DNA of 32,000 nt from an uncultured Alphaproteobacteria bacterium (GCA_934246625.1 CAKQHZ010000001.1:510001-542000); one strand, 5' to 3'; positions 2,569 to 29,578 are shown, counted from the first letter of the stretch. The notes: generated from the sequence alone by a model not told the origin. A program made the numbers and translations.

Positions 2569-3483
2569 TTAGAAGCGGAATAGAAAACCAAGTTTTATGA
2601 TTGGAAAATATCCCTTTCTTATTGAATTTAGTTCATCTTCATATTGTGTTTTTGTATCGTCTAACAATTTTTGAATATCTGTATTTGATGTATCAACTGG
2701 TGCAGTTGCAATAAGATTTGTATAGTTTTCATCAGAGTAAATCTTTATATTTCCAGTTCCAGAAATGTCAGTGGTAATTTCTGGTTTGTCTGTGAATACA
2801 ACACCAGCATCAAGATACATTTTTAATCCCCAGAATAAACCAAAGTCAAAACCTAAACCTGCATAAGGTCCGTTTATATCATAATCAAGTCCAGCTTTTA
2901 AGTTTGCTGTGGCATCAACTTCATAGTAAAGTGTTTGATTGTTGTCTGATTTCATAGAAAATTTTTCGCCAGCAGTTTTTTTCAATTCGCCATTGATTGA
3001 AAAATCACCTGTGTAATATCCAGCAGAAATTCGGAAGTTGCCAAGTGCCCAAGTGTTTCCGAATGGATAAAAATCGATTAAGGCACCAAAGTTTTCACCC
3101 TTTATTTTTGCCTTTATTTCATTATCATCAATTTTAATTGGGTGGTCATCAAGATAATCTTCGATATAGCTATCAAGAGGTTTCCAAGAGTTATAATCCA
3201 AACGAAAACCGAATCTGTTTTTCCAAAAGTTATCTTCGTGTTGTGGAATTCTGTATCCAATTTGTGCATTGGCACCACCAAGAACACCAATACCAACACC
3301 AAGTTGGAAGCCTTTGGCTGAAAAGCCAGAATTTTCTTCCTTTAGTGCATATTTTATTGGAGAATTTTCAGGTTGAGCGATTTCCATTTTTTTTATGGGT
3401 GATGTTCCCTCAAGAGTTTGAGAAAAAGCATTTGCAGAAAGCAATGTTGTTGACAATGCCAATGTGAAAATTTTTTTATTCAT
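2569..3483 (-). CDS. outer-membrane beta-barrel protein
   Basis: The start is trimmed to ATG 3483. The signal peptide is MNKKIFTLALSTTLLSANAFS|Q. The body has alternating aromatic/Gly-rich beta-strand patterns. The C-terminus GFLFRF ends in Phe, a typical OMP signature. Confidence 0.75.
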   Translation of the reverse strand: MNKKIFTLALSTTLLSANAFSQTLEGTSPIKKMEIAQPENSPIKYALKEENSGFSAKGFQLGVGIGVLGGANAQIGYRIPQHEDNFWKNRFGFRLDYNSWKPLDSYIEDYLDDHPIKIDDNEIKAKIKGENFGALIDFYPFGNTWALGNFRISAGYYTGDFSINGELKKTAGEKFSMKSDNNQTLYYEVDATANLKAGLDYDINGPYAGLGFDFGLFWGLKMYLDAGVVFTDKPEITTDISGTGNIKIYSDENYTNLIATAPVDTSNTDIQKLLDDTKTQYEDELNSIRKGYFPIIKLGFLFRF

Positions 3484-3592
3484 ATTTCCCTCGTTTATTT
3501 GTTTATTTATATTTAAGATTTTATACCTATATAATAACAAGGTCAAGATAATAAAATTGTCAAATTATAGACAAAAATAGTAAAAATAATTA

Positions 3593-3644: not shown

Positions 3645-4336
3645 ATGTTAATGTTTAGACAAAAATCGGGGGGGGTAAAACCACTTCTTTTGAAAAATCT
3701 TTAAATATTGCGAAGTTTGTTCGCATTTCTTCAATTTGTTTATGTTTCAGTTTGTCAACTTTTTACTCCTCGGACGTTTTTGCAAGAAGGGGTAGAAATT
3801 CCAATAAACGTTTTGCAAGTAGTGGAAAAAATTCACGTAGGCAAGCAAAAACTGGAACTAGTAGTGTTTCTTTAAGAAAATCACAAAGTAGAGATATATC
3901 ACTAAGTAGAGATATAGATTCTTATTCTGTTGTAGCAAGTCCTGCTACAACAAGTAGTGTTTCGACAGATAGTTCCGCTGGTAATAATTATTCAAATTTG
4001 CTTGCAACTGTAAAAATGCTTTCAAACAGGATTGATGAACTTGAGAAAAAAATAGAATTAATAGTAGATAAATTAGACATTAGAGTTAATGCGTTGGAAA
4101 ATCGCATTTTTAGTCTTGAAACAGTAAAGTTAACTGATGAACAACAAAAAATAGTTGAGAATTTTAGGCGTAAATATCTACGTGAAGGGTTGGAAAATTT
4201 AACATATGAAGAAGCAAAATCTCAATTACCTTTTTTAACTGATGACTACATTAAAGAATTTATCCAAAAAATTAAGGATCTAAGTTCTATTGCAAGTGTT
4301 GCTTCTTCACTTAAAGAAAGTGAAAGTGCAAGATAA
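3645..4336 (+). CDS. secreted Arg/Ser-rich coiled-coil protein, frameshifted at a poly-G tract (phase-variable candidate, OFF as sequenced)
   Basis: ATG 3645 has a near-ideal SD 7 nt upstream. In the given sequence this frame stops at 3702 after 19 codons. The long ORF (track 3752..4336) is open back to 3659 in another frame. There it encodes a signal-peptide-like segment (KFVRISSICLCFSLSTFYSSDVFA|RRGR) but has no ATG. One extra G in the 8-G run fuses both parts into a 230-aa preprotein. Confidence 0.7.
3668..3675 (+). repeat. G8 homopolymeric tract (candidate slipped-strand mispairing site)
   Basis: tcGGGGGGGGtaaaa. This is the only G/C run of this length I can find in the window. It lies 8 codons into the reading frame that starts at ATG 3645. 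Confidence 0.9.
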
Positions 4337-4386: not shown

Positions 4387-7300
4387 TTAATCTTCCAATT
4401 TGAATTTGCTTAGATATTCAAGGAAACGAGATTTGTAATTGTTTTCGAATGTTCTTTCACGAACGATTTCTTCAAATCTTTCTGGATTTGTATTTTTAAT
4501 TACCTTATATCTTGTTTCTTTTAATAAGTATTCACGAATATCTAATGTTGGAATACGGCTGTCCATTTGAAGTGGAGCTTTGCCCTGTGTGATAAGACGT
4601 GGGTCAAATCTGTAAAGTGGCCAGTGTCCAGATTCAACGGCTGCTTTTGTTTGTGTTGGGCCGTTAACCAAATCAAAACCGTGTGCAATACATGGAGCAT
4701 AAGCAATGATAAGTGATGGACCATCAAAACTTTCTGCTTCGCGGATTGCCTTTACAGCTTGGGCTTCGTTTGCACCCATTGCAATTTTTGCAACATAAGC
4801 ATTTGCATTTGCCATTGCAATTAAACCCAAATCCTTTTTCATAAGTTTTTTACCACCAGTTGCAAATTTTGCACTTGCACCAAATGGAGTTGATTTTGAT
4901 TGTTGTCCACCTGTGTTTGAATATACTTCGGTATCAAGCACAAAGATGTTGACATTTTTACCCATATTTAGAACGTGGTCAAGTCCACCGTATCCAATAT
5001 CGTATGCCCAACCATCACCACCGAAAATCCATAATGATTTTTTGATAAGATAGTCTGAAACAGAAAGAAGCATTTTTGATTTTTCATCTTTTGCAGATGA
5101 AAGTTTTTCCTTTAATGCCTTTACACGATTTCTTTGAGCATCAATACCAGCTTCAGTTGATTGGTCTGCGTTAATGATTTCTTCAACAATGGTATCGCCG
5201 ATTGTTGATGATAATTCCTTTAATAATGTTTTTGCAGTATTTGATAGAGTTTCAACTGCAACTGCTTGACCAAAACCATATTCTGCATTGTCTTCGAATA
5301 ATGAGTTTGACCATGCTGGACCATAACCCTTTTCATTTTTTGCATAAGGGGTTGTTGGTAAATTACCACCATAAATTGATGAACAGCCTGTTGCGTTTGC
5401 AATCATCATTCTGTCACCAAAAAGTTGAGTGATAATTTTAATATATCCAGCTTCACCACATCCAGCACATGCACCAGAGAACTCAAATAATGGTTGCATA
5501 AGTTGAGTGTGCTTTGGAAGAGCAGGGTTTAATTTTGTTCTGTCAATATAAGGAATTGATTCAAAGAATTTAAAGTTTGCACTTTCAACTTTGCCAACTT
5601 CTTGTATTGATTTCATTGTTAATGCCTTTGCAACTTTGTCTGAACCTTCGATAGGTGTTTTTACAGGACAATTTGCAACACAAAGTCCGCAACCTGTGCA
5701 ATCTTCAGGAGATACTTGAACAACATAATTTAAACCTTCGCCAAGTTCCTTTGTCTTGTATTTTGCAACTTTGAATGTGTTTGGAGCATTTTTAAGTTCT
5801 TCGTCTGTCATAACTTTTGTTCTTATTGCACCATGTGGGCAAATGAAAGCACATTTTCCACATTGTAAGCAAGTTTCGTTATTCCATACTGGAACCATTT
5901 CTGCGATTGAACGTTTTTCGTATCTTGAAGTTGCAGTTGGGAATGTGCCATCAGGTGCAAATGCAGATACAGGTAAATCGTTTCCTTCACCAGCAATGAT
6001 TTTTGCATGAAGTCTTTTTACAACTTCGGTTGCATCACTTGAAACAACAGATGGACGAGGACGTGCATTTTGTGATGGTGTTGATGGAACTTCTACCTCA
6101 TAAATATTTGAGATAGCATTATCAACAGCGTTAAAGTTCATTTGAACTATTTCAGGACCCTTTTTCATATAAGTCTTTTCAATAGCTTTTTTAATTGCTT
6201 TGATTGCTTGTTCACTTGGGATTACACTAGCAAGATGGAAGAATGCAGTTTGCATAATTGTATTGATACGTCTTCCCATACCTGAATCACGAGCAACTAT
6301 ATTTGCATTGATTGCATATACTTTTAATTTCTTTGAAATAATTTGTTCTTGAACTTCAAGTGGTAAGTTTTCCCAAAGTTGTTCTTTTTTAAATGGTGAG
6401 TTGATTAAAAGTGTGCCACCTTGTTTGATATTTTTTAACATATCAAGAGTATAGAACAATGGGAAGTGGTGAACTGCCAAAAAGTTTGCAGAACTTATTA
6501 AATATGGAGCTTTGATTTGTTTATCACTAAATCTTAAATGTGAAATTGTGTTTCCACCAGATTTTTTTGAATCGTATTCAAAGTATGCTTGACCATATTT
6601 TGTTGTTTCTGAAGTGATAATTTTAATTGAGTTTTTATTTGCTCCAACTGTTCCATCACTTCCTAAACCATAAAAGAGTGCTGCATAAGTATCTTTGTCA
6701 TCAAGTTCAAAACCATTGTTATAATCAAGTGAAAGGTGTGTTACATCATCATTGATACCAACAGTAAATTCTTGTTTTGGTTCGGATTTGTTTAGTTCGT
6801 CGTAAATAGCCTTTACCATATTTGGAGTAAATTCTTTTGATGAAATACCATAACGACCACCATTTACATAGATGCCACAGCGATTTTCTTCTTTTAATGC
6901 AGAGCATACATCAAGGTATAATGGTTCGCCAAGTGAACCAGGTTCCTTTGTTCTATCAAGAACAGAAATTTTCTTTACACTTGATGGAATTGCATTTACG
7001 AAAGCCTTTGTTGGGAATGGTCTGTAAAGATGAACTTTTACCAATCCAAGTTTTTCGCCATTTGCATTTAAAACTTTTATTGTTTCTTCGATTGTTTCAC
7101 AAGCAGAACCCATTGCAACAATTACTCTGTCTGCATCAGGAGCACCTACATATTCAACAACATCGTAATGTCTTCCTGTAAGTTTTTCGAATTTTTCCAT
7201 TTCTTCCTTTACGATGCCTTCAACCTTGTCATAGTAAGGGTTTGATGCTTCACGTGCTTGGAAGAATACATCAGGGTTTTGAGCAGTTCCGCGGATTGCT

Positions 7301-7941
7301 GGATTTTCAGGTGTTAAAGCATTTTTGCGGAATTCATCGATTTTTGATGTATCAATCATTTTTGATAAAACTTCGTCTGAAACTTTTTCAATTAAGTTGA
7401 TTTCGTGTGAAGTTCTGAAACCATCAAAGAAGTGTAAGAATGGAACACGAGCTCTTAGTGTAGCAGCGTGTGAAATAACAGCTATATCGTGAGCTTCTTG
7501 AACACTGTTTGAAGCAATCATTGCAAATCCAGTTTGACGACATGCCATAACATCGGAATGGTCGCCAAAGATTGATAAAGCGTGAGAAGCAACAGTTCTT
7601 GCACTTACATGCATAACGAATGGGAACAATTCACCAGCGATTTTATACATATTTGGAATCATTAAAAGAAGACCTTGTGATGCGGTAAATGTAGTTGCAA
7701 GTGAACCTGCTTGAAGAGCACCATGAACTGCACCAATAGCACCAGCTTCTGATTGCATAGTTGTTACTTCTGGAACTATACCAAAAAGATTTTGTCTTTT
7801 GGCATTACTCCATACTTCGTAATTTTCTGCCATAGGTGATGATGGAGTGATTGGGTATATAATTGCGAGATCGGTCAATCTGTAAGCAACATCAGATGCA
7901 GCTTCATTTCCATCACACATCAATTTTGTTATATCAGCCAT
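4387..7941 (-). CDS. nifJ: pyruvate:ferredoxin (flavodoxin) oxidoreductase, single-chain PFOR
   Basis: 1184 aa. It carries two 4Fe-4S ferredoxin motifs (CLQCGKCAFICP, CTGCGLCVANCP). The TPP-binding region is GGDGWAYDIGYGGLDHV. The N-terminus has the conserved YPITPSS and the overall architecture is that of PFOR. Confidence 0.95.
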   Translation of the reverse strand: MADITKLMCDGNEAASDVAYRLTDLAIIYPITPSSPMAENYEVWSNAKRQNLFGIVPEVTTMQSEAGAIGAVHGALQAGSLATTFTASQGLLLMIPNMYKIAGELFPFVMHVSARTVASHALSIFGDHSDVMACRQTGFAMIASNSVQEAHDIAVISHAATLRARVPFLHFFDGFRTSHEINLIEKVSDEVLSKMIDTSKIDEFRKNALTPENPAIRGTAQNPDVFFQAREASNPYYDKVEGIVKEEMEKFEKLTGRHYDVVEYVGAPDADRVIVAMGSACETIEETIKVLNANGEKLGLVKVHLYRPFPTKAFVNAIPSSVKKISVLDRTKEPGSLGEPLYLDVCSALKEENRCGIYVNGGRYGISSKEFTPNMVKAIYDELNKSEPKQEFTVGINDDVTHLSLDYNNGFELDDKDTYAALFYGLGSDGTVGANKNSIKIITSETTKYGQAYFEYDSKKSGGNTISHLRFSDKQIKAPYLISSANFLAVHHFPLFYTLDMLKNIKQGGTLLINSPFKKEQLWENLPLEVQEQIISKKLKVYAINANIVARDSGMGRRINTIMQTAFFHLASVIPSEQAIKAIKKAIEKTYMKKGPEIVQMNFNAVDNAISNIYEVEVPSTPSQNARPRPSVVSSDATEVVKRLHAKIIAGEGNDLPVSAFAPDGTFPTATSRYEKRSIAEMVPVWNNETCLQCGKCAFICPHGAIRTKVMTDEELKNAPNTFKVAKYKTKELGEGLNYVVQVSPEDCTGCGLCVANCPVKTPIEGSDKVAKALTMKSIQEVGKVESANFKFFESIPYIDRTKLNPALPKHTQLMQPLFEFSGACAGCGEAGYIKIITQLFGDRMMIANATGCSSIYGGNLPTTPYAKNEKGYGPAWSNSLFEDNAEYGFGQAVAVETLSNTAKTLLKELSSTIGDTIVEEIINADQSTEAGIDAQRNRVKALKEKLSSAKDEKSKMLLSVSDYLIKKSLWIFGGDGWAYDIGYGGLDHVLNMGKNVNIFVLDTEVYSNTGGQQSKSTPFGASAKFATGGKKLMKKDLGLIAMANANAYVAKIAMGANEAQAVKAIREAESFDGPSLIIAYAPCIAHGFDLVNGPTQTKAAVESGHWPLYRFDPRLITQGKAPLQMDSRIPTLDIREYLLKETRYKVIKNTNPERFEEIVRERTFENNYKSRFLEYLSKFKLED

Positions 7942-8263
7942 AATTTTTACCTTTCATTTGTTTTTATTAGCTTTTATTGTTATGTATGATACTAGCTTTG
8001 TCTGCTTGTTTCAAGGGAAAATTTTTCTATATTAAAAAGAGTGTTAAAAAAACTTTACAATATTTTTGTTATATGATATTATCGGAGTCGGTTCACAAAA
8101 AGAATCAAAAAGTAGAATTAAAATATATTGAAAAAGAATAAAATATAATTTTACGGGGTATTTTAAAGTTATATTTTGCTAACATTTTGATATGTATTTA
8201 GTTTTAATTTGGCACTTTGTAGGGGTAAAAAATTCGAAGTGCAAAACGGGAGAAAATAAAACC

Positions 8264-8674
8264 ATGAATAAGATTATGAAAAAATCTATAATGTTGTGTC
8301 TTCTTTGCACAATGTTTTCTGTTCACGCATATTCACAATACGGTGGCTGTAGTTATTCTTCTGGTGGATATTCTGCACCTAAAAAGTCTGCTTTGACTTC
8401 GGTTTTGGAACAGTATTGTGTTCCTGCAAGTGGTAATGATTGTTCAAAGTCTTCTGAATTGGCAGAATATACTTCAAAGGGTTGTTCTTGCAATATTGGA
8501 AGATATTGGAATTCATCTTTGCGTAAATGTAAGGAATGTGAATATGGTAGTTATAAACCAAGTTTAGGTGTTGAAGATTGTATTCAAATCGAATGCCCTG
8601 TGAATACTTTTTTAACAACTGTATCCAATTGTGGAGTTAATGAATATAGAAAAGTTTTACAAGAAACAAAATAA
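8264..8674 (+). CDS. small secreted cysteine-rich protein (CxxC / ephrin-receptor-like module)
   Basis: The start is trimmed to ATG 8264, which has GGGAG upstream. The signal peptide is MNKIMKKSIMLCLLCTMFSVHA|YS. The ~112-aa mature part has about 11 Cys. These include CSCNIGRYW...KCKECEYGSYKPSLGVEDCIQIECPVNTF. Confidence 0.7.
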   Translation: MNKIMKKSIMLCLLCTMFSVHAYSQYGGCSYSSGGYSAPKKSALTSVLEQYCVPASGNDCSKSSELAEYTSKGCSCNIGRYWNSSLRKCKECEYGSYKPSLGVEDCIQIECPVNTFLTTVSNCGVNEYRKVLQETK

Positions 8675-8687
8675 AAGGGAGAAAAAA

Positions 8688-9413
8688 ATGAAATTAAGAC
8701 CATGGAATTTTATAAAAAGTAATTTATTTAAAAAAGGAACTCTTTTAGGGTTATTTACTTTATCAAGTGCGGCTGGTGCACAAACTATTTATCAATGTCA
8801 ACCATGTCCAAATGGATTGGCTTCTCAACCTGGAACAATATCTGCTTCTGGTTGTTTTAATCCAGTAAGTAAATCTGGTTCAAGAGTTATTTTTGATAAT
8901 TCAAGTTCTGGTTGGAGTGGAACTTTACAACCAGGTTGGTATAGAATTAGTTTAAGAGGTAGTAGTGGTTCAGGTGCTGGTGGTGGATGTGGTTATTCAT
9001 CTTGTTATGGTGGTAATGGTGGAGATATGTATTATGTTTTCTATGTTTCTTCAAGTGCATCTGGTGAGTATTCTTGGAATGGTGGTTCACCAAAGTTTGT
9101 TGTAAAAGAAAATGGAAAAGTAAGAACATTTAATTCAACTAGAGGAACAGATGGCTATCAAACAAAATCAAATTGTCGTAAAGTATATTCTACTTATGGT
9201 GATTACTTGGGGGAACAATGTGATTACAGTTGTACCAATGGAACAAATGGTTCATCAACAGTGGTGTATGGAAGTGAAAAATCAAATTGTCATAAAGTAA
9301 AGACTACTTATGGTAGTTATGATGTTTGTGGTTACAATGTAAATGAAAGTGAAAAATTTACATCAAATGTTGATGCAAAATCTTATGCTGGTGGTAAATT
9401 AACTAGATTATAA
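8688..9413 (+). CDS. secreted Cys/Gly/Ser-rich protein (CxxC module + glycine-rich domain + internal repeat)
   Basis: The start is trimmed to ATG 8688, which has GGGAG upstream. The signal peptide is ...GLFTLSSAAGA|QT. It is followed by YQCQPCPNGLASQPGTISASGC and then GWYRISLRGSSGSGAGGGCGYSSCYGGNGGDMYYVFYV. Two copies of KSNC[RH]KVxxTYGxY follow. Confidence 0.7.
   Translation: MKLRPWNFIKSNLFKKGTLLGLFTLSSAAGAQTIYQCQPCPNGLASQPGTISASGCFNPVSKSGSRVIFDNSSSGWSGTLQPGWYRISLRGSSGSGAGGGCGYSSCYGGNGGDMYYVFYVSSSASGEYSWNGGSPKFVVKENGKVRTFNSTRGTDGYQTKSNCRKVYSTYGDYLGEQCDYSCTNGTNGSSTVVYGSEKSNCHKVKTTYGSYDVCGYNVNESEKFTSNVDAKSYAGGKLTRL
9165..9209 (+). repeat. intragenic direct repeat, copy 1
   Basis: aaatcaaattgtcgtaaagta...acttatggtgattac. 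It recurs 114 nt (38 codons) downstream with few substitutions. Confidence 0.8.
9279..9323 (+). repeat. intragenic direct repeat, copy 2
   Basis: aaatcaaattgtcataaagta...acttatggtagttat. It is in frame with copy 1. Confidence 0.8.
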
Positions 9414-9424
9414 TCTTTGAAACA

Positions 9425-9460
9425 AAAGGGAATATCTTCTTATTCCCTTTTTTATTTTTT
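9425..9460 (+). terminator. rho-independent terminator
   Basis: Perfect 10-bp stem aaagggaata / tattcccttt with a 6-nt loop, followed by a long T-run. Confidence 0.85.
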
Positions 9461-9477
9461 TTAAGTAGGCTTATTTT

Positions 9478-9834
9478 ATGTTTAAATTATTTTCAAAAAA
9501 ATCAGTTGAGGATACATATACGGTTATACCTTTGGCTCTTAATAAAAAAGCCAACAAATTGGTTGCCTATACTAATCAAGATATGTTGAAGCAAAGTGAA
9601 ATTTTTGAAGGTATGGTAAAAGATTTTTTTTCAAAACTTGATTGTGTGAAAACAAAACTTAATCATATTTATGAATGTCAACAAAAGGATAAAAATTTTG
9701 TTGCTGATTGTCGTGAAATTGATAAGGAAATACAAATGCTTTTATCCTTGCAAAAGGAAATAAATGGATATAGTGATGATTTTTCACAAAATATTTGGCA
9801 AAGTATTATAAATGAATTTCCTTCTGGTAATTAA
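9478..9834 (+). CDS. hypothetical cytoplasmic protein (118 aa)
   Basis: A long ORF in an AT-rich, stop-rich background. It has no TM or signal peptide. It ends 2 nt before the TTG and 14 nt before the ATG of the glycosyltransferase gene. The SD is weak and I recognise no family. Confidence 0.55.
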   Translation: MFKLFSKKSVEDTYTVIPLALNKKANKLVAYTNQDMLKQSEIFEGMVKDFFSKLDCVKTKLNHIYECQQKDKNFVADCREIDKEIQMLLSLQKEINGYSDDFSQNIWQSIINEFPSGN

Positions 9835-9848
9835 ATTTGGGTGGACAG

Positions 9849-12575
9849 ATGCAAAAATTTATTTCAGTGATTATTCCTTGCTATAATGTTGAAAATTATG
9901 TGGCTCGTTGTTTGGATAGTGTTATAAATCAAACTTATAAAAATCTTGAAATTATTTGTGTGAATGATGGCTCTACTGATAATACTTTGGCTATATTAAA
10001 AGATTATGCGAAAAAAGATAGTCGTATCAAAATTATTGATAAAAAAAATGGTGGACTTTCTTCTGCTAGAAATGCAGGTATTGAAGTCGCAAGTTATGAA
10101 TATGTCGTTTTTTTAGATAGTGATGATTGGATTGAACCTAATACTTACGAGCTTGCAATTTCAAAAATGGATGATGATATTGATTTGGTTCGTTGGAATG
10201 TTCGACTTGTCAATTATGATGATATTTGGTATGTGTGTTCTACACGAGAATGGTATAATTTATTTGATATGCAAGGTAAAATTTCATTTAATCAAGAAGT
10301 GTTAAGAAATTTTACTATAGAAGTATGGAATAAAATTTTTAGGAAATCAATTATTGATAAACATCATATACGTTTTCCTGAAGGATTGTTGCATGAAGAT
10401 TGGGTGTTCTTTTGGCACTATGCTTTGTTTATGAGAAATGTGTATTGTATTCCTGATAAACTTTACAATTATTATCAACGTAAAGGCTCTATTGTTAACA
10501 ATGTATTAACACGAAAGTTGGCACATAATTTTGATAAACTTCAAATTTGTGATAGAGTTTATGAAAATTTTGTAAAAGAGGGCGTTTTTGAAGAATATAA
10601 AACAGCATTTATTGAAAGTGTTTTCCTAAAACTTTTTCCTCAAATGGTGAATGAAGTTTATTCTGTTAAAGAAGCATGTTTAGAAGCAAAAAAATATATT
10701 TGTAAATGGGGTATTCAATTTGAAGATTATCATTTAATGTATTTGCTTATGAATGATTGTTTCAAAGAAATTGAAGATATTTATGTTAAAAGTATTTATG
10801 TTAAACAGTTCAATAATAAAAAACGTGAACAAAAAATTTCTATTATAGTTCCTGTGTATAATAGAGAAAAATATTTGAAAAGATGTTTGAATTCTCTTAT
10901 GAATCAAACGTATAAAAATATTGAAATTATTTGTATTGATGATTGTTCAACTGATAATTCCTGTAGAATTTTAAGTGATGCTTCAGGTTTTGATTGGCGA
11001 ATAAAAGTTTATCAAAATGATGAGCATAGAGGAATAGGTTATACTCGACAAATGGGGTTGGAACTTTCTTCTTGTGATTATATTATGTGGTGTGATAGTG
11101 ATGATTGGTATGAACCAACTATGTGTGAAAAAATGTTGAAGGCTATGCTTAAATACAATGTTGATATGGTTGAGTGTAGTGTTCAATATGTTGATAGCCC
11201 AGATATAGGAATAAGAAAGGAATTTGAACTGGATTTTGCTTATCACGTATGTCGTAAAGGTAAGCAAAGTATCGATTTTTATATCTTTAGTAATATGTAT
11301 AAATTTTTCTGGAACAAATTGTATCGTCGCTCAATTATTGAAGATTGGAAAATAAAGGTTTTTTCTTTGCCTGTGTATGAAGATATGGCTTTTGTATATC
11401 TTTATTTAATGAGGTCTAAATCGGTTTATTTTATTGATGAAAAACTTTATAATTATTATAGGCATGGTGGTAGTGTTTCTTCTTGTTTATATGATGAAAA
11501 TAAAGGTGTTGTTTTACTTGATGAATTTAAGGCATTTGAAAAAGTTGTTGATTTTGTAAAGGAACATAATTGGAAAGATAAGTTTTATATTTGTAATGAA
11601 ATGTATTATAAATATTTATTTTCATTATTGGATATAGGTAAATTTATTGTTAATAATCATACAAATAAGTTATTACGATTGGCATCTAAAGTTGTTTCGG
11701 ATTCAAGTAAATATTGTTCTGTGAAAATGAATATATTTTTTGCGTGTGATAATAACTATATAGAGCAATTATATGTCGCAATGTATTCTATTTTAGTAAA
11801 TTCATTACCTAATGATATTTATAATTTTTATATTCTTGATGGTGGAATTTCTTGGCTTAATAAACAAAAGTTGAATAAATTGAAAAAGGTAAAGCCTTTT
11901 ACAATAGAATATATTAAAATGAATGATAAGTTGTTTTCAAATTTTCCTATTACCGATTTATGTAATTATATTTCAAGGACAACTTATTACAGATATATGA
12001 TTCCAAGGTTAAAGCCAGAATTGGATAAGTGTTTATATTTGGATTGTGATTTAATATTGGAAGCTCCTATTCGTAAATTATATTCTATTGATATAGAAGA
12101 TAACTATGTGGCGGCAGTTCAAGATGCTTCACGATGCACACACTCTTTTTATAAACAATTTGATATAGATGTGCCATTTAATGCTGGGGTTCTTCTTATC
12201 AATAATAAAAAGTGGAAAGAGGATAATATTGTTGAAACGTTGTTTGAAAATACTTCTAAATTAAAAGATGTTTTAGTATGGCAAGACCAAGATGTCCTTA
12301 ATTATACATTTAAGGGTAAAGTGAAGTTTATTGATTGGAATTTTAATTTACAACAAAGTTTCTTTACTGAAAATGTAGAGCCATATAAATATACTTTTGA
12401 TGAAGTGCAAAAGTTTAAATTTAATCATATTGTTATTCACTATGCTGGTCCAATTAAGCCATGGCAAGCAGGGTGCGTTCATCCTTTTTGGTGGAGATAT
12501 TATTCTTATCTTAAACAAACTCCGTTTAAGAAAAATGCAAAGAAATATTTGAAAAAAATTTTGAAAGAATTGTAA
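9849..12575 (+). CDS. three-module glycosyltransferase fusion (GT2 + GT2 + GT8)
   Basis: One uninterrupted ORF. The track starts it at TTG 9837, but ATG 9849 is more likely. Module 1 has SVIIPCYNVENYVARCLDSVINQTYKNLEIICVNDGSTDNT...LDSDDW. Module 2 has SIIVPVYNREKYLKRCLNSLMNQTYKNIEIICIDDCSTDNS...CDSDDW. Module 3, from about nt 11727, has NIFFACDNNY...YLDCDLIL...HYAGPIKPW, like LPS glycosyltransferases of the RfaJ/LgtC type. No TM or signal peptide. Confidence 0.85.
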   Translation: MQKFISVIIPCYNVENYVARCLDSVINQTYKNLEIICVNDGSTDNTLAILKDYAKKDSRIKIIDKKNGGLSSARNAGIEVASYEYVVFLDSDDWIEPNTYELAISKMDDDIDLVRWNVRLVNYDDIWYVCSTREWYNLFDMQGKISFNQEVLRNFTIEVWNKIFRKSIIDKHHIRFPEGLLHEDWVFFWHYALFMRNVYCIPDKLYNYYQRKGSIVNNVLTRKLAHNFDKLQICDRVYENFVKEGVFEEYKTAFIESVFLKLFPQMVNEVYSVKEACLEAKKYICKWGIQFEDYHLMYLLMNDCFKEIEDIYVKSIYVKQFNNKKREQKISIIVPVYNREKYLKRCLNSLMNQTYKNIEIICIDDCSTDNSCRILSDASGFDWRIKVYQNDEHRGIGYTRQMGLELSSCDYIMWCDSDDWYEPTMCEKMLKAMLKYNVDMVECSVQYVDSPDIGIRKEFELDFAYHVCRKGKQSIDFYIFSNMYKFFWNKLYRRSIIEDWKIKVFSLPVYEDMAFVYLYLMRSKSVYFIDEKLYNYYRHGGSVSSCLYDENKGVVLLDEFKAFEKVVDFVKEHNWKDKFYICNEMYYKYLFSLLDIGKFIVNNHTNKLLRLASKVVSDSSKYCSVKMNIFFACDNNYIEQLYVAMYSILVNSLPNDIYNFYILDGGISWLNKQKLNKLKKVKPFTIEYIKMNDKLFSNFPITDLCNYISRTTYYRYMIPRLKPELDKCLYLDCDLILEAPIRKLYSIDIEDNYVAAVQDASRCTHSFYKQFDIDVPFNAGVLLINNKKWKEDNIVETLFENTSKLKDVLVWQDQDVLNYTFKGKVKFIDWNFNLQQSFFTENVEPYKYTFDEVQKFKFNHIVIHYAGPIKPWQAGCVHPFWWRYYSYLKQTPFKKNAKKYLKKILKEL

Positions 12576-21214: not shown

Positions 21215-24200
21215 ATGTTTAATGCTTATAAACGAATCAGAAAAGACTTTGGTAAAATTAAGGCTCCGATTGATGTTCCAAATCTTATTAAAATTCAAGA
21301 AGAATCTTATAAAAGTTTCCTTCAATTAGAAGAAAAACCTGAAGAAAGAAAAGATGTTGGTATCCAAGCTGTATTCAAATCTGTATTCCCTATACATGAT
21401 TTTTCAGGACTTGTTGATCTTGAATTCGTAAAATACGAGTTTGATACTCCTAAATATGACGCAGAAGAATGTCTTCGTCGTGGTTTGACATTTGCTGCTC
21501 CTCTTCGTGTTACTTTGAGACTTATTATATGGGATATAGATGAAGAGGGTAAAAAGACTATTAAAGATGTAAAAGAACAAGAAATATTTATGGGTGAAGT
21601 TCCTTTGATGACTGATAAGGGAACATTGATATTTAACGGCACAGAACGAGTATTCGTTTCTCAAATGCAACGTTCACCTGGTGCTTTCTTTACACATGAT
21701 GAAGGTAAAACTCATGCTAGTGGAAAGCTTTTATTTAGTGCAAAAATTATTCCATCTCGTGGTTTCTGGTTGGATTTTGAATTCGATGCTAAAGATATTC
21801 TTTATGTAAGAATTGATAAAAAACGTAAAATACCTGTTACTTCATTATTATCTGCTTTCTATAATGATGAAACTCAAATGGCTGTTGAAAAAGCTATTGC
21901 AGAAGGTAAAAATCCAGATGAAATCGAAAAAGTTGGTATGTCATCAAATGAAATACTTAAACTTTTCTATAACGAAGAAAAACTTACAAAATTTAAAAAT
22001 GGTTGGAAGAAACCTTTTAATGCTTCTTTGATTACAAAAAGCGTTAAATTTTCTTATGACTTAGTTGATGCAAAAAATGGCGAAGTTGTTCTTGCTATGG
22101 GTTCAAAACTTTCACCAAGAAATGCTAAAAAATTAGCAGAAGGTGGTTTGACAGACCTTTATATTACAGATGAACAACTTGCAGAAGCTGGACTTTTCTT
22201 GTCTGATGATGTTTTGGATATGGAAACATACGAAGTTATTGCAGAAGCAGGTCAAGAAATTGATGCCGAAGTTATTTCAAAATTCGAAGATGCAAAAATT
22301 AAAGAAATCCCAGTTCTTTATATTGATAATGTAACTGTTGGTCCACATATCAGAAATACTTTGATTGTTGATAAAAATAAAACTCGTGAAGAAGCATTGT
22401 TTGATATTTATCAAGTTATGCGTCCTGGTGAACCACCTACAGTATCATCTGCAGAAAGTATGTTCTTTAAGATGTTCTTTGATAAAGATTTTTATGATTT
22501 ATCATCTGTTGGTAGATTTAAGTTGAATACAAGACTTGATATTTCATTTGAAGATGCTCCTGAGAATTTAACAATTCTTCGTCGTGATGATGTTATTAAA
22601 GTAATTAAATACTTGGTTGATTTAAGAGATGGTAAAGGTGAAATCGATGATATTGATAACCTTTCAAACAGACGTATTCGTGCGGTTGGTGAACTTCTTG
22701 AAAATCAATACAGAATTGGTATTGTAAGAATGGAAAGAGCAATCAAAGAAAAGATGTCTTCTGCTCAAATCGATTCTGTGATGCCACAAGATTTAGTTAA
22801 TGCAAGACCTGTTCTTTCTGCTGTGAAAGAATTCTTGGGTTCTTCTCAATTATCACAATTTATGGATCAAAACAATCCTCTTTCTGAAATTACACATAAA
22901 AGAAGATTGTCTGCTCTTGGACCTGGTGGTTTGACAAGAGAACGTGCAGGTTTCGAAGTTCGAGATGTGCACCCAACTCATTATGGACGTATTTGTCCTA
23001 TTGAAACTCCAGAAGGTCAAAACATTGGTCTTATCAACTCATTGGCATCTTATGCAGTGATAAATAAATATGGTTTCATTGAAACACCATACAGAAAAGT
23101 TATTGATGGTAAAGTTACAGATGAAATTATTTATGTTTCTGCTATGGAAGAAAATAAATATATTATTGCCCAAGCAAACTCTGTTTTAAACAAAGATGGA
23201 AGTTTCGCAGAAGATTTGGTAAGTTGCCGTAAAAATGGTGAATTCGTTTTACTTCCAGCAAGTGAAATTACTTTGATGGACGTATCTCCAAAGCAACTTG
23301 TTTCTGTAGCAGCAGCGTTGATTCCTTTCCTTGAAAACGATGATGCTAACCGTGCTTTGATGGGTTCAAACATGCAACGTCAAGCTGTGCCTCTTATAAA
23401 GTCAGAAGCTCCTTTCGTTGGAACTGGTATGGAATATCGTGTTGCAACTGACTCTAAGGCTACTATACAAGCTGAAAACGATGGTGTTGTTACTCAAGTT
23501 GATGGTTCAAGAATCGTTATTCAAGCAACTGGTAAAAAGTCAAAATCAGCTACTGGTGTTGATATTTACAGACTTCAAAAGTATGCTAGATCTAACCAAG
23601 ATACTTGTATTAACCAAAAGCCGATTGTTAATGTTGGCGATAAAGTTAAAGCAGGTGATATTATTGCTGATGGTCCATGTACAGATATGGGTGAATTAGC
23701 TCTTGGTAGAAACGTTCGTGTTGCATTTATGCCATGGCAAGGTTATAACTACGAAGATGCTGTTGTTATCAGTGAAAAAATCGTAAAAGATGATGTGTTC
23801 ACTTCTGTTCATATTTCTGAATTTGAAGAAACTGCACGTGATACAAAGTTGGGTCCAGAAGAAATTACTCGTGATATTCCAAATGTTGGTGCCGAAGCAT
23901 TAAAGAATTTGGACGAAACTGGTGTTATTCATATTGGTGCTCATGTTAAAGCTGGCGATATTTTGGTTGGTAAAGTTACACCAAAGGGTGAAACTCCTGT
24001 TACCCCAGAAGAAAAACTTCTTCGTGCAATATTTGGTGAAAAGGCAACTGAAGTTCGTGATACATCTTTGAGAGTTCCACCTGGAACAGAAGGAACAGTT
24101 CTTGATGTAAGAATGTTCTTCCGTCGTGGTATTCAAAAAGATGAACGTGCTTTGTCTATTGAATATATGGAAATTGAAAAACTTAACAAAGATAGAAATG

Positions 24201-25387
24201 ATGAAAAGCAAATTTTGGAAGTTGGCTTCAATGAAAAGTTAAAAACTTTCCTTGATGGTAAAGTTGTTGCAGAAGCTCCTAAAGATGTTGCATCAAAGGG
24301 TGCTACTTTGAAGGCTTCTGAATTGGCTGGTATTCCATCTTCTAAACTTGAAAAAATCAAACTTGATAATGAAAAATCTCAAGAAGCATTTGTTTCAATG
24401 ATTTCTGAATTTGAAGAAGTTTTGAAAAAAACAGATGCAAAGTTTGATGACAAGATTGAAAAAGTTAAACAAGGTAATGACTTGCTTCCTGGTGTATTAA
24501 AGGTTGTTAAGGTATTTATCGCTGTTAAAAGAAAACTTCAAATCGGTGATAAGATGGCTGGTCGTCATGGAAATAAGGGTATTGTTTCACGTGTTGTTCC
24601 AGTTGAAGATATGCCTTATCAAGCAAATGGTGAACCTGTTGATATCGTTCTTAATCCTCTTGGTGTGCCAAGTCGTATGAATGTTGGTCAGATTTTGGAA
24701 ACTCACCTTGGTTGGGCTGCAAAGGGTCTTGGCGTTCAAATCGGTGAAATGATGGAACGTGTATATAAGAAGGAACTTAATGTTTCTGATATCCGTAATA
24801 AGTTAGAAAGAATCTATGGTAAAGAAATTTATGATAGAGAACTTAAAGACTTTACAGATGAAGAAATTAAATCTTTTGCAAATTCAATTTCAAATGGTGT
24901 TCCTATGTCAACCCCTGTATTTGATGGTGCAAAAGAAGCCGATATTTCTAGATTATTAGAAGAGGCTGGTCTTGATAGTTCTGGTCAAGTTGAACTTTAC
25001 AATGGTGAAACTGGTGAAAAGTTTGATTGTCCTGTAACTGTTGGTTATATGTATTACCTTAAACTCCATCACTTAGTTGATGAAAAAATCCATGCTCGTT
25101 CAGTTGGACCTTACTCTTTGGTTACACAACAACCATTAGGTGGTAAAGCTCAATTCGGTGGTCAAAGATTTGGTGAAATGGAAGTTTGGGCATTGGAAGC
25201 ATTCGGTGCTGCATATACTTTACAAGAAATGTTAACAGTTAAGTCTGATGACGTATCTGGAAGAACAAAAGTCTATGAATCTATTGTTCGTGGAAACTAT
25301 GACTTTGAATACGGAACACCAGAAAGCTTTAATGTTTTGGTTAAAGAAATCAAATCACTTGGTCTTAACTTGGAAATGAAAAAATAA
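21215..25387 (+). CDS. rpoB: DNA-directed RNA polymerase subunit beta
   Basis: 1390 aa. All conserved blocks are present, for example [20 protein letters not shown] and [16 protein letters not shown]. Confidence 0.99.
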
Positions 25388-25405: not shown

Positions 25406-28400
25406 ATGAATAATGAAATTCAAAAAGTTTTTACAAATGTAGTTCCGGAAGATAGTTTTTCTAAACTTAAAATTTCCGTTGCATCTCCTGAACAAATCCG
25501 TTCTTGGTCTTATGGTGAAGTTAAAAAAACTGAAACTATAAACTACAGAACTTTTAAACCTGAAAAGGACGGACTTTTTTGTGCTAAGATATTTGGACCA
25601 GTTAAAGATTACGAATGTCTTTGTGGTAAATATAAACGCATTAAATATCGTGGCGTAATTTGTGAAAAGTGTGGTGTTGAAGTTACACTTTCAAAAGTTC
25701 GTCGTGAAAGAATGGGACATATTGAACTTGCTTCTCCTGTGGCTCATATTTGGTTTTTGAAATCACTTCCATCAAAAATGGGTGTGCTTTTGGATATGCC
25801 ACTTAAGAAATTGGAAAAAGTTCTTTATTTCGATAACTATATCGTTATTGAACCAGGTCTTACACCTCTTAAAATGCACGAACTTTTAACTGAAGATGAT
25901 TATCAACGCTATATTGAAGAATATGGTCAAGATAGTTTCCGTGCAGGTATTGGTGCCGAAGCATTGAAAGAAATGCTTGCATCTGTTGATTTGAAAGAGG
26001 AAGCAGAAAAACTTCGTTTAGAACTTAAAGATATGAAGTTTGAAATGGCTCGTAAAAAAGTTATTCAAAGACTTAAAATCATCGAAGCATTTTTGGAATC
26101 AGGTTCAAAACCAGAATGGATGATTATGGACGTTATTCCAGTTATTCCACCTGAACTTCGTCCACTTGTTGCTCTTGATGGTGGAAGATTTGCAACTGCT
26201 GATTTGAATGACTTATATAGACGTGTTATTAACAGAAATAATCGTTTGAAAAGATTGATGGAACTTAAGGCTCCTGAAATTATTATCAGAAATGAAAAGA
26301 GAATGCTTCAAGAAGCTGTTGATAGTTTGTTTGATAATTCTCGTAGACCAAGACCAGTTGTTGCAAGCAACCGTCGTCCTTTGAAATCATTGGCTGATAT
26401 GCTTAAAGGTAAGTCAGGTCGTTTCCGTCAAAACCTTCTTGGAAAACGTGTTGATTATTCTGGTCGTTCAGTTATCGTTTCTGGTCCTATGTTGAAATTA
26501 CATCAATGTGGTCTTCCTAAACGTATGGCTCTTGAATTATTTAAACCATTTATTTATTCAAAGCTAGAATTTTATGGACACGCAAATACAATTAAATCTG
26601 CAAAGAAAATGGTTGATAAGGAACTTCCTATTGTATGGGATATTTTGGAAGAAGTTATTAAAGAACACCCAGTTCTTTTGAACCGTGCTCCTTCTCTTCA
26701 TAGACTTTCTATACAAGCATTTGAACCAGTTCTTATTGAAGGTAAAGCTATTAGACTTCATCCACTTGTTTGTACAGCTTTCAATGCTGACTTTGATGGT
26801 GACCAAATGGCTGTTCACGTTCCACTTTCTTTGGAAGCTCAACTTGAAGCTCGTGTTTTGATGATGTCAACAAACAACATCTTACACCCAGCTAATGGTA
26901 AACCTATTATTACACCTAACCAAGATATTGTCCTTGGTATTTACTATATGTCTATTGAAATAGAAAAGGCAAAAGGTGAAGGTATGGTTTTGGGTTCTTT
27001 AGATGAAATTAAACTTGCTCTTGCATCTAAAAAACTTGATATGCATGCAAAAATTAAAGCAAGAATCCAAGTTGTGAATGAGAATGGTGAGTTGGAATCC
27101 AAAGTTGTTGATACTACTGCTGGTAGAGTTTTGATTTACGAAATTGTTCCAAAGGCAAAAGGTGTTTCTTTTGATTTAGTTAATCAACAAATGACAAAGA
27201 AAAAGATTGGTGAACTTTTTGGTGCAATTTATAAATATTGTGGTCAAAAGGAAACAGTTATCTTTGCTGATAAAATTATGGATCTTGGTTATAAAAACGC
27301 TATGTATTCTGGTATTTCATTTGGTAAAGATAATATCGTTGTTCCAGATAGTAAGAAAAAACTTATTGAAGATACAGAAAAGAAAGTTATTGAATATGAA
27401 AAACAATATCAAGACGGTCTTATCACTTCAAAAGAAAAATACAATAAGGTTGTTGATGCTTGGGCAAATTGTTCCGAAGTTGTTGCTAATGAAATGATGA
27501 AAGTTCTTTCAAAGCAAGAAGATGGAAAACCACAAAATCCTATTTATATGATGGCAAATTCTGGTGCCCGTGGTTCTAAAGCTCAGGTTAAACAGCTTGC
27601 TGGTATGCGTGGTTTGATGGCTAAACCTAATGGTGAAATTATTGAAACACCTATTATTTCAAACTTTAAGGAAGGTTTGACTGTGGCTGAATACTTTAAT
27701 TCAACTCACGGTGCTCGTAAAGGTTTGGCTGATACTGCTCTTAAAACTGCTAATGCTGGTTATTTGACAAGAAGATTGGTTGATGTTTCTCAAGATGCAA
27801 TCATTACAATGGAAGATTGTGGAACAGAACGTTCTATCTCAGTTTCTGCTGTTGTTGATGGTGGTAATGTTGTTGAATCATTGGCAGAAAGAATCCTTGG
27901 TCGTGTGGCTGCTGAAGATATTATGACACACAATGGCGAATTGATTGTTTCTAAAAATAATCAAATTACAGAAGAAGATATTGAAAAAATTGAAGCCGCT
28001 GGTATTGAATCAGTAAAAATCCGTTCAGTGTTAACTTGTGAAGCAAAACATGGTATTTGCACAAAGTGTTATGGTCGCGATTTGGCTCGTGGAAATATGG
28101 TTAATGTTGGTGAAGCAGTTGGTATTATCGCTGCACAATCAATTGGTGAACCTGGAACACAGCTTACTATGAGAACTTTCCATATTGGTGGTGCTGCTCA
28201 AAAGGGTGTTGAAAAATCATCTATTGAATCTCCATACGATGCAACTGTAAAGTATGAAAATACATCTTATGTGAAGAATTCTGCTGATGAAAATATTGTT
28301 ATGACACGTAATGCAGAACTTATCTTCGTTGATTCAACTGGTAAAGAAATTAGCCGTCAAAAGGTGCCTTATGGTTCAAAGATTTATGCTCTTGAAGGCG

Positions 28401-29578
28401 ATAAGGTTTCAAAAGGTCAAAAGGTTGTTGAATGGAACCCTTACATCAGACCTATTATCACAGAAGTTTCAGGAAAACTTAACTTCGTTGATTTGATTGA
28501 TGGTGTTTCAGTTTCTGAAGTAAAAGATGAAGCAACTGGTATTTCATCAAAAGTTGTTGTTGATTGGAAAACTGGTCTAAAGAAGAAAGATTTGAATCCA
28601 TCTATCTATATACTTGATGAAAAGGGAAATACTTTGGTTCTTCCTACTGGTTCTTCTGCAAGATATATTATTTCAACAGGCACAGTTATTTCATCAAACA
28701 ATGGTGATGAAGTAAAAGCTGGTGATATTATTGCTTATATTCCTCGTGAAGATAGTAAGACAAAAGATATTACTGGTGGTCTTCCACGTGTTGCTGAACT
28801 TTTCGAAGCAAGAAGACCAAAAGATGCTGCTATTATCGCTGAAAAAGATGGAACTATTACATTTAAAGAAGATTACAAATCTAAATATAAAATTGCGATT
28901 GTTCCAAATGATGGAAGTGAAGAAGTTGAATATCTTATTTCAAAAACAACAGCTCTTAATGTTCAAGATGGTGATATTGTTAAGAAGGGTGATAAAATTA
29001 CTGAAGGTAAGATTGCTCCTCATGATATATTACGTATTTTTGGTGTTGAAGAATTGGCTAAATACCTTGTTAGTGAAATCCAAGGTGTTTATAGACTTCA
29101 AGGTGTGGAAATCAATGATAAGCACATAGAAGTGATTGTTCGCCAAATGCTTCGCAAGAACGAAATTATAGATGCTGGTGCAACTACATTTGTTAATGGC
29201 GAATATGTTGATGAAGAAGATTTGATTGAAGAAAACAAGAAGGCTGTTGAAGTAGGTGGAAAACCTGCTACTGCAAGACCTTATCTCCTTGGTATTACAA
29301 AGGCAAGTTTGCAAACTCGATCATTTATTTCTGCTGCATCTTTCCAAGAAACCACAAAAGTTCTTATCGAATCAGCTATTGCTGGTAAGGAAGATATGTT
29401 GACTGGTTTGAAGGAAAATGTTATCGTTGGAAGACTTATTCCTGCGGGAACTGGTGCTTATATCAACAGAATTAAAGCTATTGCAAAAGCTCAGGATCAA
29501 GAATTGGAAGCAGAAAAAGCTGATGAACTTAATAAAAAGCAAGATTCTGCTGACTTGACTCTTCCTGGTATTGCATAA
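25406..29578 (+). CDS. rpoC: DNA-directed RNA polymerase subunit beta'
   Basis: 1390 aa. It has the zinc-binding CLCGKYK...CEKCGVEV. The catalytic motif [12 protein letters not shown] is present. Confidence 0.99.

Follow-up and report, generated by a model that had tools for sequence, protein, structure and literature searches.

A conserved pair of rapidly diverging, predicted exported cysteine-rich proteins in uncultured gut Alphaproteobacteria

A 32,000-nucleotide (nt) stretch of DNA from an uncultured Alphaproteobacteria bacterium (the whole stretch is referred to below as the window; its guanine-plus-cytosine (GC) content is about 32%) carries two adjacent open reading frames (ORFs), ORF-A (8264-8674; 136 amino acids (aa)) and ORF-B (8688-9413; 241 aa), that encode small, cysteine- and glycine-rich proteins with predicted signal peptides (the features described between 8054 and 12575 lie on the plus strand). 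The two genes are kept side by side in related genomes, ORF-A carries a cysteine-rich module of the ephrin-receptor type, and ORF-B diverges far faster than the genes around it, even among strains of one species, with the differences concentrated in a few segments of the protein. We hypothesize that the pair forms a variable, disulfide-stabilised exported device of a contact, receptor-binding or adhesin-like kind, a reading to which we give slightly less than even credence.

The contrast in rate is found both between and within species. Between species of the window's genus, pyruvate:ferredoxin oxidoreductase (PFOR) is 91-92.5% identical and RNase J 88-90%, as against 39-54% for ORF-A, 38-52% for ORF-B and 47-52% for the glycosyltransferase encoded 3' of the pair; in a second lineage polA is 75-80% identical between species, as against 38-50% for ORF-A, 34-52% for ORF-B and 29-31% for ORF-C, a small gene that usually follows ORF-B. 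Among four strains of the window's species, whose PFOR sequences are 99.2-100% identical, ORF-B is 84.7-92.6% identical, with a nonsynonymous divergence (dN) of 0.045-0.097 and a ratio of dN to synonymous divergence (dS), omega, of 0.63-0.99; in ORF-A, ORF-C, the glycosyltransferase and PFOR omega is 0.02-0.42. The dN of ORF-B is 10-40 times that of the flanks, the nonsynonymous and synonymous counts of ORF-B and of the flanks differ significantly (Fisher's exact test, p=0.0011), and close strains differ by a dN of 0.06 in ORF-B versus 0.01 in the glycosyltransferase. The scaffold and signal peptide are under purifying selection (omega 0.08-0.5; 0.08 for the ORF-B signal peptide among strains), and because of this selection, and of the syntenic homologues that exist for both ORFs, the pair is more than a chance arrangement.

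The variability of ORF-B has definite locations. A glycine-flanked, hypervariable cysteine loop (GSSGSGAGGGCGYSSCYGGNGG; 8958-9023, aa 91-112) shows 33 nonsynonymous versus 6 synonymous differences among the four strains (omega about 2, from small, non-independent pairwise counts), and residues 61-90 show 22 versus 3. Across the family the length of the loop goes from zero to several tens of residues, and what is inserted is cysteine-rich. Further along lies a mosaic segment (9135-9272, aa 150-195) that holds 14 of the 23 replacements separating the window's ORF-B from that of locus L008; its dN (0.24) and dS (0.34) are both far above those of the flanks, which argues for mosaic recombination or conversion. 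An internal tandem duplication of the pattern KSNC[RH]KV..TYG.Y..C.Y (9164-9319) consists of two 42-nt copies (9164-9205 and 9278-9319) that are 86% identical and spaced by 114 nt, and the allele types of copy 1 resemble copy 2; a 25-aa segment (9285-9359), flanked by 15-nt direct repeats at 9268-9282 and 9343-9357, is present in this allele but missing from P0002-P0004. ORF-A has a variable region of its own in the Gly/Ser/Cys-rich N-terminal tip of its mature protein (YSQYGGCSYSSGGYS; 8330-8374), where strain variants are set apart by an 18-aa insertion (P0028) or a 10-aa deletion (P0029 / L008). Two ORF-B relatives (P0014 and P0015; columns about 100-200 of alignment A1) bear insertions of several tens of Cys/Gly/Ser-rich residues exactly in the cysteine loop, so the scaffold can evidently accommodate entire additional mini-domains there.

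Both proteins are probably exported by the Sec pathway, to judge from their N-termini. By inspection, the signal peptide of ORF-A (aa 1-22) reads MNKIMKK-SIMLCLLCTMFSV-HA followed by Y, with a predicted cut after aa 22 (between SVHA and YSQ), and that of ORF-B (aa 1-31) reads MKLRPWNFIKSNLFKK-GTLLGLFTL-SSAAGA followed by Q, with a predicted cut after aa 31 (between AAGA and QTIY); a basic n-region, a hydrophobic core and an AxA-type site are kept in all homologues of both proteins. Within subgroups the signal peptide of ORF-B is 88-93% identical versus 30-61% for the mature domain, which is the reverse of the usual pattern and could reflect a specific targeting or regulatory role. The ORF-B signal peptide (8688-8780) also has a long n-region, of 16 residues.

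The mature ORF-A protein has 10 cysteines, and aa 79-117 (8498-8614) match the Pfam model PF07699 (Ephrin_rec_like / GCC2_GCC3) with 28.0 bits (E 1.9e-6), above the gathering threshold of 23.1 bits; the model also matches six of 10 ORF-A family members (best E 9.2e-7). The cysteine register of the repeat (C-x2-C-x2-G-x-[YF] units) is kept: in alignment A4 of this family, C60, C89, C92, C106, C111 and C123 are invariant, with C52 and C74 close to it. The best matches of the family profile in the Protein Data Bank (PDB) are the cysteine-rich region of EphB2 and ELAPOR1, at no better than E 0.11 but with the cysteines in register, the EphB2 register being shared as C-x-C-x2-G-x-Y...C-x2-C-x2-G-x-Y...C...C-P-x-[GN]-[TS]-[FY]. 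Judged by profile score, register and cysteine conservation, ORF-A carries a genuine ephrin-receptor/TNFR-type cysteine module. The initial annotation had called PF07699 mostly eukaryotic, and this agrees with published work, in which the family is regarded as having arisen in early eukaryotes and as rare among bacteria (PMC6993872). It is part of the group of TNFR-type cysteine-rich modules (the cysteine-rich domain of EphB2, ELAPOR1, thyroglobulin and Chlamydomonas Mst1), which form long repeat arrays in eukaryotic receptors and surface proteins, whereas ORF-A and ORF-B are tiny, stand-alone bacterial proteins with one to three modules and without a detectable eukaryotic donor.

The corresponding module of ORF-B precedes an all-beta domain and spans Y35 to C56 (YQCQPCPNGLASQPGTISASGC; 8790-8855). 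It is conserved in the ORF-B family alignment A2 (26 members), where C37, C40, P41 and G43 are invariant and G49 and C56 nearly so. A pattern C-x2-C-x2-G-x(5-8)-G-x(3-5)-C had been proposed for both proteins: both strings exist, and KCKECEYGSYKPSLGVEDC of ORF-A fits exactly, whereas the last spacer in QCQPCPNGLASQPGTISASGC of ORF-B is six residues rather than three to five. Likewise, the proposed likeness to PF07699 stands above threshold for ORF-A, and for ORF-B it rests on relatives, the window's ORF-B itself, cysteine module included, having no match in Pfam, NCBIfam or PHROGs. Two of the 26 relatives give sub-threshold PF07699 matches (E about 1e-3), five give weak NCD3G matches and there are weak TNFR_ELAPOR1_6th matches too; in the divergent relative P0066, where three modules are present, the PF07699 score reaches 48.2 bits, and P0066 also resembles Mst1, a mastigoneme protein of Chlamydomonas (E 3e-10), as well as ELAPOR1 and thyroglobulin. 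At the level of the family, then, the N-terminal module of ORF-B is by profile evidence of the same type as that of ORF-A. When the two families were aligned with each other by hhalign, their signal peptides alone aligned and the cysteine modules were not significantly similar.

The all-beta domain of ORF-B is marked by a signature strand, PGWYRISLRG (8931-8960; aa 82-91, strand 83-90 in the model), in which G83 and Y85 are invariant in A2 and W84 and R86 nearly so, and by a C-terminal strand, AGGKLTRL (9387-9410; strand 235-240 in the model, with a predicted local distance difference test score (pLDDT) of about 90), whose motif [AG]-G-x-K-[LI]-[TV]-[KR]-L is kept across the whole family. A first AlphaFold2 model, built on 14 sequences, reached a pLDDT of 60; a second, built on 26 sequences, has a mean pLDDT of 78 and a predicted TM-score (pTM) of 0.65, with residues 60-190 at pLDDT 85-96, and is all-beta, of about 13 strands, with the C-terminal KLTRL strand integrated. 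As a candidate beta-barrel signal of the outer-membrane protein (OMP) type this C-terminus was rejected, as the window's own OMP-like ORF ends in GFLFRF. That ORF (2569-3546, minus strand) has a signal peptide and a weak CarO-porin match (E 8e-4).

The initial annotation had seen in ORF-B the signature shape of the glycine-rich domain proteins, a family found in the extracellular domain of ALK and LTK. The glycine-rich string GWYRISLRGSSGSGAGGGCGY...GGNGGDMYYVFYV is indeed present, and the order of motifs in ORF-B, G-x-Y-x-[IV]-x-L-x-G-(Gly run)...(Gly run)-Y-x-F-x-[VL], recalls TYSISGYGAAGGKGG...GGGGGGGATYVF of ALK; the Pfam models proposed for it did not bear this reading out. PF12810 (threshold 24.5 bits) has no match at E<=10 in the 26 members of A2 or in P0064-P0067, and PF21722 (Gly_rich_2) none at E<=10 in any ORF-B member scanned, nor is there a PHROG match; human ALK 673-984 (100% identical to PDB 7mzy_A), run against the same library as a positive control, scores 54.1 bits on PF12810. 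Alignment by hhalign to ALK gives a probability of 0.7% for A2 and 0.4% for alignment A5, BLASTP of P0067 against ALK gives E 4.4, and a PDB profile search returned neither ALK nor LTK. In three divergent relatives (P0047, P0065 and P0067) there are at least five poly-Gly runs, in an order that looks ALK-like by eye, and these proteins are homologous to the N-terminal half of ORF-B (hhalign 98.8%, E 6e-17), comprising the signal peptide, the cysteine module and the PGWY and YYVFYV strands. What ORF-B has in common with the ALK/LTK domain is a predicted beta-sandwich, a loop between two glycine runs, a hypervariable tip and a last strand at the C-terminus; in ALK and LTK (PF12810; PDB 7N00, 7NX3, 7LIR), however, 10-14 glycine runs build a polyglycine-II lattice, whereas the window's ORF-B has two short runs (GSGAGGG and GGNGG) either side of one loop. 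Phage Pam3 gp24 and ALK have been described as sharing a TNF-like sandwich with glycine-rich stems that bear hypervariable receptor-binding tips (PMC9608196), and from its predicted model a remote, fold-level relation of ORF-B to this TNF-like/glycine-rich superfamily is possible. ORF-B differs from ALK/LTK and from phage tips (Pam3 gp24, S16 gp38) alike in its fused TNFR-type module, its predicted Sec export and its pairing with a second cysteine-rich protein.

The signals around the two genes are those of a small operon. A promoter-like site (8054-8082) combines TTTACA, a 17-nt spacer, TATTAT and an extended -10 TG; its hexamers and spacing recur 5' of the ORF-A homologue in loci L001 (5385-5413) and L006 (5393-5421), and the block is kept in the four-species alignment A6. 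Downstream of it, about 45 nt 5' of the ORF-A start codon, lies the box GGCACTTTGT (8211-8220), which could be an operator or a leader-RNA element and which occupies the same position in all the loci where PFOR is the upstream neighbour (L001, L003, L004, L008 and L012-L015); it is absent from the plus strand of the loci in which polA or a DHH-family gene stands there (L006, L007, L009 and L010). ORF-A has a Shine-Dalgarno sequence GGGAG at 8248-8252, 11 nt 5' of its ATG at 8264, and ORF-B has its own GGGAG at 8677-8681, 3 nt past the ORF-A stop codon and 6 nt 5' of its ATG at 8688, the gap between the genes being 13 nt. An intrinsic-terminator-like hairpin (9424-9462) follows, with an 11-bp stem (9424-9451), a 6-nt loop and then a T-run; a hairpin with T-run also stands 3' of ORF-B in L001 and L006, with another sequence, and in L008, where it is identical. 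Being on one strand, with a short gap, their own ribosome-binding sites, a shared putative promoter and terminator and a kept adjacency, ORF-A and ORF-B are, on these sequence signals, a bicistronic operon. The unit of two exported Cys/Gly-rich proteins, each with its own GGGAG, ATG and AxA-type signal peptide by inspection, had been recognised in the initial annotation, and it holds, both genes being real. Two details change: ORF-B starts at 8688, one base from the earlier position, and the last spacer of its cysteine module has six residues. The terminator is present, with a stem of 11 bp at 9424-9451 (given earlier as 10 bp at 9425-9460).

The family of ORF-B is small. A word-indexed search of 5.8 billion clusters found 16 relatives, and an exhaustive profile search of 1.84 billion representatives gave 21 matches, four of them spurious; P0040, P0042, P0043 and P0046, being repeat proteins that match the short PGxYKV-like strand only, or translation artefacts, were dropped. 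The wider profile A2 (word-indexed search, E<=10) gave 21 matches and no bridge to glycine-rich-domain families. The family comes to about 30 clusters among billions of proteins. A search of 185,579 species genomes yielded five ORF-B loci, each in a metagenome-assembled genome named 'Alphaproteobacteria bacterium' or 'bacterium'. No relatives of ORF-B appeared in 50,697 phage genomes (tblastn), in IMG/VR viral contigs or in JGI metagenomes, and the exhaustive profile search found no eukaryotic homologue. In every locus examined a small, secreted, cysteine-rich ORF-A-like gene lies directly 5' of the ORF-B-like gene, while the gene 5' of the pair varies by locus (PFOR, polA or a DHH-family gene); the GC content of the pair is 0.30-0.34, equal to that of its flanks, and all loci have 28-33%. 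As far as genome sequences go, the pair occurs in a single clade only, of uncultured Alphaproteobacteria with low GC from gut and rumen, and is vertically inherited. The match in GC and the clade-wide synteny argue against recent horizontal acquisition, which is accordingly disfavoured, and the suggestion of horizontal acquisition or host mimicry in the initial annotation found no support in these data or in the searches for eukaryotic and phage relatives.

The conserved unit is the A-B pair, which is usually linked to an operon of ORF-C and a glycosyltransferase. In the window ORF-C (9478-9834; 118 aa, a cytoplasmic protein without a signal peptide) is tightly coupled to the next gene, a multidomain glycosyltransferase (GT2 + GT2 + GT8; 9837-12575, about 908 aa). 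ORF-C homologues of 113-131 aa stand 3' of ORF-B in L001, L003, L004, L006, L007, L008 and L010; they share a conserved N-terminus, MF[KR]xx...[YF]x[VI]IPxELN, have no match in Pfam or NCBIfam, and always adjoin or overlap the start of a GT2/GT8 gene, and the protein may be a glycosyltransferase adaptor or chaperone. The succession of ORF-C and GT2/GT8 genes recurs in three different genomic contexts (window, 9478-12575; L001, 6850-8982; L006, 6786-8910; L007, 6748-8059; L010, 7756-9008), L009 being the sole locus without ORF-C and glycosyltransferase after the pair. The glycosyltransferases differ in architecture (spans compared: window, 9837-12575; L001, 7243-8982; L007, 7136-8427; L010, 8100-9008): L001 and L006 encode GT2+GT8 proteins of 579-582 aa, L007 has a split GT8 then GT2, and L010 has GT2 followed by a DUF6311 protein. 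The surface-glycan genes beside the pair are thus themselves being remodelled.

The wider neighbourhood in the window is core chromosome. The gene 5' of the pair is PFOR (4387-7941, minus strand), and 3' of it the glycosyltransferase is followed by RNase J, RadC, aspS, tRNA-Trp, nusG, rplKAJL and rpoBC; window annotation and locus comparison revealed no phage genes near the pair and no mobile element around it, the locus being single-copy, core and syntenic. Some other genes of the window deserve mention. Two overlapping minus-strand genes (17-739 and 723-1628) encode proteins of 240 and 301 aa that apparently have one N-terminal hydrophobic, probably membrane-spanning, segment each and no Pfam or NCBIfam match; a 194-aa protein (3752-4336) has a Ser/Arg-rich, low-complexity-looking N-terminal half, a helical-looking C-terminal half and no database match; and the products of rpoB (21215-25387) and rpoC (25406-29578) are both 1390 aa long, a coincidence, with ordinary domain content.

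How might such a pair work? Under the contact or adhesin-like hypothesis, ORF-A and ORF-B would both be exported and oxidatively folded, ORF-A as a short stalk built of ephrin-receptor/TNFR-type modules and bearing a variable Gly/Ser/Cys tip, ORF-B as one such module joined to a beta-sandwich, and the two would jointly serve, outside the cytoplasm, as a module for contact, receptor binding or adhesin-like attachment. The conserved scaffold of ORF-B would present the variable, glycine-stemmed, cysteine-tipped loop and the neighbouring hypervariable hairpin in a manner comparable to phage fibre tips and ALK, and the loops would diversify by point substitution, repeat-mediated insertion and deletion, and recombination, with a host, a partner cell, phage or immunity as the source of selection. 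The general class for comparison is that of strain-variable bacterial surface and adhesin loci lying beside surface-glycan genes. With these the pair shares a core locus that diverges far beyond its neighbours, variation confined to loops, repeat-mediated indels, mosaics and adjacent fast-evolving glycosyltransferases; unlike them, it has no recognisable anchor, autotransporter, pilus or S-layer domain, and the window shows neither paralogous silent cassettes nor phase-variation repeats.

Several observations weigh against this hypothesis. Omega for the whole of ORF-B is below 1, the elevated value in the cysteine loop comes from the few and non-independent comparisons noted above, the high dS in aa 150-195 speaks more for recombination than for positive selection acting on point mutations, and relaxed constraint could lie behind part of the contrast in rate. 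For neither protein was a membrane anchor, a lipobox or an OMP-type C-terminal signal identified, nor was a dedicated secretion system, and the two may simply remain periplasmic. More than half of the ORF-B family (P0007-P0015, P0030-P0044 and others) has an odd cysteine count in the mature protein, from which it follows that one thiol stays free, that a disulfide links separate molecules, or that pairing within the variable loops is loose. An intermolecular A-B disulfide was considered on grounds of parity and rejected: the summed cysteines of the two proteins are even in the window, L001, L006, L009 and L010 and odd in L003, L007 and L008, and since parity does not covary consistently with the ORF-A partner, neither a fixed disulfide pattern nor an A-B disulfide is supported. 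Foldseek searches of the PDB gave only noise with the first model and nothing significant with the second, whose top match was the extracellular domain of human ALK (7nx3_A; E 0.19, probability 0.54, TM-score 0.21, root-mean-square deviation (RMSD) 9.1 Å over 109 columns). Among the 50 BFVD matches listed for the first model, about a dozen (roughly a quarter) are named 'glycine-rich domain' or 'receptor protein-tyrosine kinase', the list being headed by a 'phage tail repeat like' protein (E 6e-4); with TM-scores mostly of 0.1-0.3 and RMSD mostly above 15 Å these are not significant as evidence of fold, and glycine composition could in part be behind the matches in both databases.

Other explanations of the pair have to be weighed against the same facts. 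An unlikely one, though by no means negligible, is that the two belong to the envelope or periplasm and are linked to the neighbouring glycan pathway, whether as glycoprotein substrates of ORF-C and the GT2-GT8 enzyme that are modified in the cytoplasm before Sec export, as with HMW1/HMW1C and AIDA-I/Aah, or as structural partners of a variable lipo-oligosaccharide; in that case their fast change would stem from relaxed constraint or from varying together with the glycan. ORF-C and GT2/GT8 genes trail the pair in three genomic contexts, ORF-C is translationally coupled to the glycosyltransferase, both of these evolve fast too (29-31% and 47-52%, as given above), and ORF-B is Ser/Thr/Gly-rich with N-x-S/T sites. 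However, in most loci a terminator-like hairpin stands between ORF-B and ORF-C, the pair in L009 does without either partner, GT2 and GT8 are generic polysaccharide and lipo-oligosaccharide enzymes with no match to known protein glycosyltransferase families, and variation among close strains is far greater in ORF-B than in the glycosyltransferase. The small size, export and Gly/Cys-rich make-up of the two proteins, together with strong allelic diversity among strains and a narrow phyletic range, would also suit a secreted bacteriocin- or toxin-like effector, either ORF-B by itself or the two proteins together, that diversifies in an arms race against competitors. This we consider very unlikely: Pfam, NCBIfam and PHROGs reveal no toxin, bacteriocin, immunity or transporter domain, no membrane immunity gene adjoins the pair, the locus sits in single copy beside housekeeping genes and off mobile elements, and the conserved scaffold with its integrated C-terminal strand resembles a stable binding domain.

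Two further scenarios would bring the genes in from outside, and both strike us as highly improbable. A recent import from a eukaryote for host mimicry, ORF-A imitating an ephrin receptor and ORF-B imitating ALK or LTK, would fit the genuine match of ORF-A to a family deemed eukaryotic in origin and rare in bacteria (PMC6993872), the rank of ALK as the top PDB fold match of ORF-B and the fact that the organisms carrying the pair inhabit animal guts; the GC of the pair is nevertheless indistinguishable from that of its flanks, vertical inheritance of the cassette extends over at least three of the clade's lineages, no eukaryotic homologue of ORF-B emerged from the exhaustive search, and neither the glycine-rich Pfam models, which recognised the ALK control, nor hhalign against ALK (below 1%) links the two proteins. 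Domestication of a phage receptor-binding (tail-fibre tip) protein, or of a decoy derived from one, draws on the names of the listed BFVD matches and on an architecture that recalls the glycine stems and hypervariable tips of Pam3 gp24 (PMC9608196), and has against it the poor superpositions behind those matches, the absence of relatives from the 50,697 phage genomes, PHROGs and IMG/VR, the lack of phage genes nearby, and a Sec signal peptide and cysteine-rich partner that are atypical of phage fibres.

Returning to a variable exported contact device as the preferred reading, the cysteine module is of a known kind in an unusual host, and the ORF-B domain and the A-B(-C-glycosyltransferase) cassette are undescribed. 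The pair would be among the few bacterial uses of the ephrin-receptor/TNFR-type cysteine module, and ORF-B defines a protein family without a Pfam, NCBIfam or PHROG model. A bolder and quite unlikely extension is that the ORF-B family is a cellular-bacterial branch of the TNF-like/glycine-rich group fused to a TNFR-type module, ranging from forms with many glycine motifs (P0047, P0065 and P0067) to the minimal, single-loop form of the window, and that with ORF-A it makes up a TNF-like/TNFR-like pair attaching a small-genome, possibly partner-dependent gut alphaproteobacterium to partner or host cells, the loop tips setting specificity. If the remote link to ALK and phage proteins is true, the family would supply few-glycine-motif intermediates for the evolution of that fold. 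Gut Alphaproteobacteria of the order Rs-D84 have genomes below 1 Mb and a predicted dependence on partner cells (PMC12306168); if the organism is Rs-D84-like, its hypervariable exported pair would be a prime candidate for cell contact, and it would also serve as a strain marker.

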